A DNA stretch of 8,984 bases from a virus (lineage: Duplodnaviria > Heunggongvirae > Uroviricota > Caudoviricetes), in IMG/VR virus record IMGVR_UViG_2600254977_000009; one strand, 5' to 3'. The position numbers were made by a program, and so were the translations under genes. The notes under the pieces were generated by a model. That model worked only from the letters and a program-made list of their open reading frames with translations. It made no database searches and was not told where the DNA came from. Below, piece by piece: positions 7,210 to 8,029 of the stretch. How positions within the stretch are numbered: position 1 is the stretch's first letter; every line of letters starts with the position of its first letter.

Positions 7210-8029
7210 CTATCGCGTTACCCTCTTTAACTGCCGCTCCGCCCATGCCTCTTCAATGTCAAACCGAACCACCAACGTATCGTAAAAGCGTTTCACTGAT
7301 TTTTTCCACGTATCAAGCGTGATAGCACTCGTCACTTTGCATATGGCATTAAATGCCTCCGTTGATGGCAGCCTTTCACAGCCACGACCACCACAACGCT
7401 GGCAATCTCTGATAACAGGCATACCACGTTTTACCGACTCTTCACGATGAATGGCGACACCACGCCCACGGCAATCCTTACAGGCGGTGGAAACCTCACC
7501 CTTTCCGCCACACTCCGGACAGGCAACTTTTACCACCTCCCTGACTTTTTTCCATTCTTCCCAGTAAGACGGATACACGCCTTTTGTGCACTTTGCCCAC
7601 ACTGGTGGCTTACCATCCGGATACTGGATCTTGTTTGTAAAAACCTCGCTTTCAATAAATTTTTTTCCGTGACAGCAAGGGCACTGTTTTTTGCTCGCCG
7701 CGCTACGGGCATAATCTTCAAACGCATACGAAGCCAATGCGCATCACTACCGGTTTTATTTCTGCCGGAAGTTTTCTCAACGCCGCCACACGATCGCACC
7801 GACTGAGTGCATAATCTGCCAGTAATTCTGTTGCCCGCGCCCTGTCATTCATACTGATGCCCATTTTCCCCAGGAACGCAGAAAACCCCATCTCAGCCCG
7901 ATTCTGTGTCATGCCCTGCGCGGCCATCACATCAGTGATACTCAGCGCATCTTTTGACGTTGAGGCCGATGCATCGGTCAGGCCAGGGGATTTTGGGGAG
8001 TAGTATTTCGGTAAATCTTCCAGTTTCAT
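7210..8029 (-). pseudogene. Q: Lambda-family antiterminator Q, split into two overlapping frames by a 1-nt frame change (true frameshift or sequencing error)
   Basis: ORF 7718..8029 (MKLEDLPKYYSPKSPGLTDASASTSKDALSITDVMAAQGM...) aligns with the N-terminus of lambda Q (MRLESVAKFHSPKSP...SGTDVMAAMGM...). ORF 7210..7737 (ASYAFEDYARSAA...CxxC motifs...PSTEAFNAICKVTSAITLDTWKKSVKRFYDTLVV...LKRVTR) aligns with the rest (ATFAYADYCRSAA...PLYDALVV...NAVTR). The two pieces overlap by 20 nt and are offset by one frame. The C-terminal part has no ATG; the track used TTG. Confidence 0.7.

Follow-up and report, generated by a model that had tools for sequence, protein, structure and literature searches.

The antitermination protein Q of phage lambda is built from a torus or nozzle that sits in the RNA-exit channel (residues 1-44), a body that includes a helix-turn-helix (residues 61-113 and 153-207), and an arm (residues 114-152; PMC9388147). 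When residues 1-38 are removed, lambda Q becomes defective in antitermination while its DNA binding is spared (PMC9388147). For prophages as a whole, defective, 'grounded' or cryptic elements, produced by inactivating point mutations, are a well-known outcome, and the general concept has been reviewed (PMC6379469).

We analyzed an 8,984-nt stretch of DNA from IMG/VR virus record IMGVR_UViG_2600254977_000009 (hereafter, the window), which contains the region controlling the late genes in a Qin-like lambdoid prophage; the host E. coli is a close relative of UTI89 and GN02100. Two ORFs on its minus strand, encoding 103 and 175 aa, are the halves of one Q gene. We consider it about 90% probable that the lesion separating them is a genuine, inherited 2-bp deletion that inactivated the Q gene, i.e. 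ordinary prophage decay within a small sublineage. The features of the split gene are the following.

7718..8029, minus strand: ORF of the N-terminal Q fragment, 103 aa, made up of 98 native residues and the frameshift tail GFVCV
7735..7737, minus strand: site of the 2-bp deletion, TA or AT lost from CATTATGG to leave CATTGG (alignment to UTI89 and GN02100)
7210..7737, minus strand: ORF of the C-terminal Q fragment, 175 aa, corresponding to residues 99-273 of the intact protein
7489..7692, minus strand: 68-aa insert relative to lambda Q, residues 114-181 of the intact protein, carrying C117xxC120 and C171xxC174
7378..7488, minus strand: equivalent of the zinc-ribbon arm, residues 182-218 of the intact protein, with C184/C187/C210/C213 corresponding to lambda C118/C121/C144/C147

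The N-terminal ORF ends in ...PVVMRIGFVCV with a TGA stop at 7720..7718, and the C-terminal ORF opens with a TTG codon (MASYAFEDY...), so that one frame stops and the other resumes at ASYAFEDY exactly as the original prediction had described. There is a 20-nt overlap between the ORFs, whose frames differ by one. Each of them matches Pfam family PF03589 (58.4 bits, E=7.7e-16 for the N-terminal part and 96.4 bits, E=1.1e-27 for the C-terminal part, with a cutoff of 26.7), which together with the ORF list agrees with the claim that both halves of a lambda-type Q are present, one frame apart. According to the alignment with lambda Q, the N-terminal part encodes the segment that forms the torus plus the beginning of the four-helix body, and the C-terminal part encodes the remainder of the body, the two zinc modules, and the helix-turn-helix. 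The window thus holds no single intact ORF with all of these domains, the gene being split by the 2-bp deletion, and a single frameshifted Q pseudogene, in place of two separate proteins, is the appropriate annotation.

The frame change had been attributed to a single base. The one-frame offset itself was correct, but the alignments to UTI89 and GN02100 reveal a 2-bp deletion, in short CATTATGGC -> CATTGGC at + strand 7735-7737 relative to the intact E. coli allele. The pairwise alignment to UTI89 sets GCGCATTATGGC of the intact allele against GCGCATTGGC of the window; within bases 7735..7737 the placement of the deletion is ambiguous, as either TA or AT may have been lost. The deletion moves the frame by +1 and destroys the ATG of Met99, converting it into the TTG at which the second ORF starts. 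It is the sole difference between the window and the UTI89 allele over 881 nt. In the reference allele, Q is a single 822-nt ORF of 273 aa, annotated as 'antitermination protein' (WP_000762880.1) in UTI89 and found also in GN02100, NU14, and others. The break comes after codon 98, in the middle of a body helix and in the first half of the body.

When the two halves are rejoined, the resulting 273-aa protein scores 166 bits on PF03589, compared with 193 bits for lambda Q itself (207 aa), and it matches the solved structure of lambda Q (7UBM chain Q) with E=2.3e-38; 4MO1 and 7UBJ were also matched. The assignment to the lambda type in the original prediction is borne out by the PF03589 matches of both halves and of lambda Q, and by the alignment of the rejoined protein to 7UBM. 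Residues 1-113 are collinear with residues 1-113 of lambda Q, and residues 182-273 with residues 116-207, the latter without a gap, so that the homology runs end to end through the torus segment, body, zinc-ribbon arm, and helix-turn-helix. Judged by this homology, the window Q truly belongs to the lambda type, its residues 114-181 being a 68-aa insertion. The significant PDB matches were lambda Q chains only, no Q21 or Q82 structure being matched, and the protein is not assigned to the Q21 or Q82 type.

Two other family assignments were considered and rejected. Lambda Q might have been expected in a different Pfam family, but a scan of lambda Q puts it in PF03589. The Pfam families listed for the rejoined protein at E up to 0.1 are PF03589, DnaJ_CXXCXGXG, and Zn_ribbon_16, of which PF03589 alone is above its cutoff; the DnaJ cysteine-rich domain (PF00684) reaches 28-29.5 bits against a cutoff of 32.7. 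Lambda Q gives a comparable sub-threshold match to PF00684, and the likeness is limited to the CXXCXGXG motif.

The insert lies exactly at the junction of body and arm. The four CxxC pairs that had been predicted for the zinc-binding region were all located in the reconstructed protein (C117/C120, C171/C174, C184/C187, and C210/C213), and the excess over lambda Q, put at roughly 60 aa, is 66 aa (273 vs 207 aa) and is caused by the 68-aa insert. The same prediction had singled out an enlarged Cys-rich insert and had proposed an alignment to related Q proteins. Such an insert is present; in the alignment, however, it is conserved in 33 long-form homologues, so it belongs to a long-form Q subfamily and is no oddity of the window gene. 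C117, C120, C171, and C174 are invariant in these 33 sequences, and C184, C187, C210, and C213 are invariant in 34 sequences, lambda included, while the middle of the insert varies in length across the long-form homologues. Searching for homologues gave 599 proteins, of which the full-length ones listed (260-277 aa) come from many genera of Enterobacterales, e.g. Escherichia, Salmonella, Klebsiella, Enterobacter, Citrobacter, Serratia, Pantoea, Lelliottia, Leclercia, and others. Of 249 matches among phage records, 131 give a single alignment block spanning 80% or more of the protein, which is the long-form pattern; phage Evi belongs to this set, as do Stx2c- and Stx2k-converting phages and phages of Erwinia, Salmonella, and Klebsiella. 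Short-form Q is found among the phage records in lambda, HK446, mEp043, and others.

Judging by its conserved cysteines, the insert most likely forms, at the arm's base, a second Zn(Cys)4 site. An AlphaFold2 model of the intact protein, calculated with the 33 homologues, has a mean pLDDT of 59 and a pTM of 0.35, with the canonical zinc ribbon below 50; in this otherwise poor model, a long beta-hairpin between the two CxxC knuckles of the insert has a pLDDT of 60-78. A profile-profile comparison did not support an origin of the insert by duplication of the lambda-type zinc ribbon (10% probability over 10 aligned columns). A lambda-type Q of the long form, with a probable second zinc site by the arm that contacts DNA and sigma, is common, being found in K-12 Qin, Evi, and Stx2c/Stx2k phages; our literature search found no structural or biochemical study of long-form Q or of ydfT/QuuQ. 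The question of the second zinc site concerns this subfamily and not the window locus: the additional Cys-rich segment has no bearing on the defect and is normal long-form Q architecture.

By megablast with positions 7180-8060 as the query, 2497 out of 5426 complete E. coli genomes have the gene. In the best matches (UTI89, NU14, S88, APEC O1, IHE3034, ATCC 11775, and others), 881 query bases are aligned with 883 subject bases. The deletion is absent from complete RefSeq E. coli genomes: 2033 of them have the junction region and none is deleted, as a 70-mer on the junction had no match at 99% identity or more. Likewise, junction scans did not find it in GTDB representative genomes or JGI metagenomes. 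The carriers surfaced solely through an exact-protein look-up of the truncated product. The exact 103-aa protein is public as ELG55928.1, 'hypothetical protein A1Y5_02168', of E. coli KTE118; the look-up gave 27 contigs for the truncated product and at least 1000 for the intact protein. The truncated product is indexed in 58 collection blocks, and 24 carrying contigs were read. At the DNA level, the deletion junction was checked in three carriers, and it was confirmed in all of them.

L004: OZ040181.1, a complete 5.0-Mb chromosome, deletion junction confirmed in DNA
L005: a 45.7-kb contig from SRA run SRR29636582, with the site 10 kb inside, deletion junction confirmed in DNA
L006: a metagenome scaffold from ERZ28659576, deletion junction confirmed in DNA

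The carriers also share linked sequence. A 16-kb comparison of L004 with UTI89 gave two SNPs besides the deletion, and nothing else. The SNP at L004:5315 is common to L004, L005, and L006 and absent from UTI89, and the base at L004:9077 is the same in the three carriers, GN02100, and the window. Over its full 8984 nt, the window differs from GN02100, its closest complete relative, by one SNP at 8918 (in a DUF968 gene), the deletion, and a scaffold artefact, with nothing further. At 8918, the + strand of the window has A, and UTI89, GN02100, L004, L005, and L006 all have T; because this SNP is private to the window, its strain is distinct from the other carriers examined. The carriers have in common a SNP missing from UTI89, and the window has one of its own, so there are at least two genotypes of common descent. 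Such a distribution fits a deletion with a single origin in a GN02100-like background that has since passed to several isolates. The deletion is a handy marker for this small E. coli sublineage near UTI89 and GN02100.

The original prediction had treated a sequencing error as a live alternative, in which the strain truly has the intact 273-aa gene and 2 bp were lost in base-calling, joining, or gap closing. Certain properties of the data favor such an error, e.g. the absence of the deletion from every complete RefSeq E. coli genome and the origin of the window from a scaffolded draft with a demonstrable join artefact. The assembly gap mentioned in that prediction is indeed present, as a run of 19 N at 2805-2823 inside the lysozyme gene, and the 12-mer TGGTCAAGTATC is duplicated, with one copy on each side (window 2793-2835). 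Complete relatives have a single TGGTCAAGTATC copy at this site and no gap; since the 12-mer occurs twice in the window and once in the relatives, the contig ends overlap, and the gap is a scaffolding artefact in which nothing is missing. Apart from this artefact, the window record, although a scaffolded draft, is accurate and has no other indel in 8.9 kb, which argues against an error at the Q site.

Near the deletion, at Q residues ~100-108 (window ~7705-7735), the contigs of many drafts end, giving partial proteins (P0002-P0015) in native sequence. These ~100-aa 'partial' Q proteins were considered as further frameshift alleles and rejected, as they are contig-end truncations that end in native sequence. 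The accumulation of contig ends within a few codons of the site suggests a repeat or mosaic boundary between the Q alleles of co-resident prophages, adjoining the deletion, where mis-joins would be possible. A join artefact at such a boundary is argued against because the L005 contig and the complete chromosome carry the deletion.

The same lesion also recurs in independent assemblies (KTE118, OZ040181.1, SRR29636582, and ERZ28659576) together with linked lineage markers in the form of a shared SNP. The complete chromosome, the metagenome scaffold, and the SRA-run contig, in which the site lies 10 kb away from the end, have an identical deletion, and it travels with the linked SNP. Its context, CATTATGG, contains no homopolymer, and a systematic sequencing artefact at this motif is unlikely because 0 of 2033 complete genomes with the junction show the deletion. 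In the window's own record, the deletion is supported through its identity with the other assemblies, and a sequencing or assembly error has become very unlikely. The identical deletion in the complete chromosome, the SRA-run contig, the metagenome scaffold, and KTE118 supports the notion of a Q pseudogene.

Beyond the end of the gene, we identified the following features.

7165..7207, minus strand: pR'-like late promoter, with the block GGTAAATTTG.CT..AACGATGGG in common with lambda pR'
7105..7127 (also given as 7127..7112), minus strand: intrinsic, tR'-like terminator, CCCGCCGCCTGGCGGG then TTTTTTAT
5289-5538, minus strand: three tandem tRNA genes, predicted by ARAGORN as Met(CAT), Arg(TCG), and Arg(TCT), 3' of the methyltransferase gene

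The -10 element of the pR'-like promoter, TAAATT at 7182..7177, is identical to that of lambda pR', and the initial-transcribed AACGAT at 7170..7165 is the sigma-dependent, -10-like pause element of lambda. By analogy with lambda, we infer a -35 element at ~7199-7207 and the transcription start; a simple promoter scan did not call the pR'-like site. The terminator is strong and lies ~65 nt downstream of the putative start site, such that a promoter after Q, a pause element, and a downstream terminator, as expected of a late promoter, are all in place. Between 3900 and 7300 there are 14 terminator-like sites, mostly on the minus strand, compared with 3.9 expected. Two near-identical terminator-like hairpins (AGCCCCTCTCCGGAGGGG...) occur ~490 nt apart on the minus strand, at 4547-4566 and 5034-5053, and form part of the terminator excess between Q and the lysis genes. 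Beyond the terminators follow a 65-aa ORF, an N6/N4 DNA methyltransferase, the three tRNA genes, holin, lysozyme, and Rz, then terminase.

Two observations concern the annotation of this downstream region. The tRNA with the CAT anticodon is a Met tRNA according to ARAGORN and a tRNA-Ile in the RefSeq annotation of UTI89. At 4086-4313 on the minus strand, and in the matching UTI89 features, a DUF1737 gene and a small hypothetical gene, both partial pseudogenes in RefSeq, lie between the tRNAs and holin. These partial pseudogenes hint at a possible earlier rearrangement in that part of the prophage.

Our reasoning on loss of function builds on the structure-function data for lambda Q (PMC9388147), a protein 31-39% identical to the window Q. 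The N-terminal product would keep the torus segment but not the two parts that contact the Q-binding element, namely the zinc-ribbon arm and the helix-turn-helix, and so could not recognize that element. The C-terminal ORF would keep the arm and the helix-turn-helix and would lack residues 1-98, being cut in the middle of a body helix. Its TTG start has, on direct reading, no obvious Shine-Dalgarno sequence. That neither fragment antiterminates and that no active Q is made is, in our view, a sound inference from these comparisons. RNA polymerase initiating at the intact pR'-like promoter would then stop at the terminator ~65 nt downstream, as well as at later terminators, and the methyltransferase, tRNA, lysis, and morphogenesis genes downstream would stay off after induction. 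The locus would still yield a short leader RNA, in a position comparable to lambda 6S RNA or to StxS, a 74-nt sRNA of Stx phages (PMC7547250). The result would presumably be a lysis-defective, 'grounded' prophage, and the deletion predicts that the prophage of the carrier strains is unable to switch on its lysis and virion genes. If the Q of another prophage has matching specificity, it could complement the defect in trans.

A split gene could nevertheless be functional, through low-level +1 frameshifting near GTT-TGA, through reinitiation at TTG followed by reassembly of the fragments, or through activity of the C-terminal fragment alone. The 20-nt overlap of the ORFs could permit termination-reinitiation, and the C-terminal ORF retains a complete PF03589 stretch and both zinc modules. 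Against this, the break falls within a body helix, and lambda Q already fails without residues 1-38 (PMC9388147), whereas the C-terminal fragment lacks residues 1-98. Across thousands of genomes, Q is as a rule one uninterrupted ORF, which speaks against a programmed frameshift, and on direct reading neither a slippery heptamer nor a Shine-Dalgarno-like stimulator was seen at the site. A gene with programmed ribosomal frameshifting was consequently rejected, given 2033 complete genomes that are intact at the junction and the lack of a slippery motif. We consider it quite improbable that the split gene still works.

It is also conceivable that the frameshift was selected: the C-terminal fragment, translated from TTG, might bind the Q-binding element without antiterminating and so act as a dominant-negative 'anti-Q'. 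The 175-aa fragment is likened to lambda Q without residues 1-38 because it has the zinc modules and the helix-turn-helix and no torus segment. If this were true, the late genes of the resident phage and of superinfecting phages with the same specificity would be blocked, amounting to a prophage-derived host defence. We regard this as highly speculative and give it very little credence.

A further possibility is that the frameshift is neutral decay in an already defective prophage, in which loss of Q changes nothing. The locus has many genes in common with the cryptic Qin prophage of K-12, and in relatives with an intact Q, RefSeq has the two partial pseudogenes between the tRNAs and holin. 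However, these relatives have intact annotated genes for the repressor, cro, Q, holin, lysozyme, Rz, and terminase, and since the carrier differs from UTI89 over 16 kb by two SNPs and the deletion, Q is the sole visible carrier-specific lesion in that stretch. If the intact-Q prophage of UTI89-like strains is not inducible, the mutation would have no phenotype; a literature search on prophage induction in UTI89 found nothing specific. Neutral decay of this kind is a real possibility, though less likely than not.

The cI-like, LexA-family repressor of this prophage lies outside the window (L001 224-862, L004 2193-2831). It is annotated by RefSeq/NCBI as a 112-aa protein with the S24 peptidase domain only, and another gene caller gives 212 aa, with the N-terminal part included. 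The length difference in carriers (112 vs 212 aa) was considered as a mutation and rejected, as the DNA is identical in all four loci.

In summary, a lambda-type Q gene of the long form has been split by an inherited 2-bp deletion. RefSeq has a named protein for the intact allele, and the truncated one has likewise already been deposited. The KTE118 record labels the N-terminal part a 'hypothetical protein', and annotation is the main practical point, with little beyond it.

The closest counterpart of the window Q is WP_000762880.1 of UTI89, GN02100, NU14, and others, whose DNA is identical except for the 2-bp deletion, the window gene being split into 103 + 175 aa. The Q of phage Evi, with 96.7% protein identity, has the long form like the window Q. 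YdfT (QuuQ), the putative antitermination protein Q of the cryptic prophage Qin of K-12, is also a long-form Q with the same four CxxC pairs, but it is only 40% identical and, at 250 aa, has a shorter middle of the insert. The K-12 Qin prophage shares several neighbors with the window locus (hokD, ynfO, ydfO/DUF1398, ydfR, and rrrQ), but it lacks the rusA-Q arrangement of the window locus.

Lambda Q (PDB 4MO1, 7UBJ-7UBN; PF03589) is collinear with the window Q and has the same four zinc cysteines, and its gene has the same context, 3' of the nin/rusA region and 5' of a pR'-type promoter with a nearby terminator. In contrast to lambda Q, the window Q has the 68-aa insert, with two extra CxxC pairs at the body/arm junction; the identity is about 31-39%, and the window gene is frameshifted. 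The sequence from -35 to -10, which is the site of the Q-binding element in lambda, diverges as well, implying a different specificity. Finally, the prophage resembles the grounded prophages reviewed in PMC6379469 in that one small lesion in an essential gene of the lytic cycle is fixed in a host sublineage; whereas that review stresses excision functions, the lesion in the window affects the antiterminator of the late genes.
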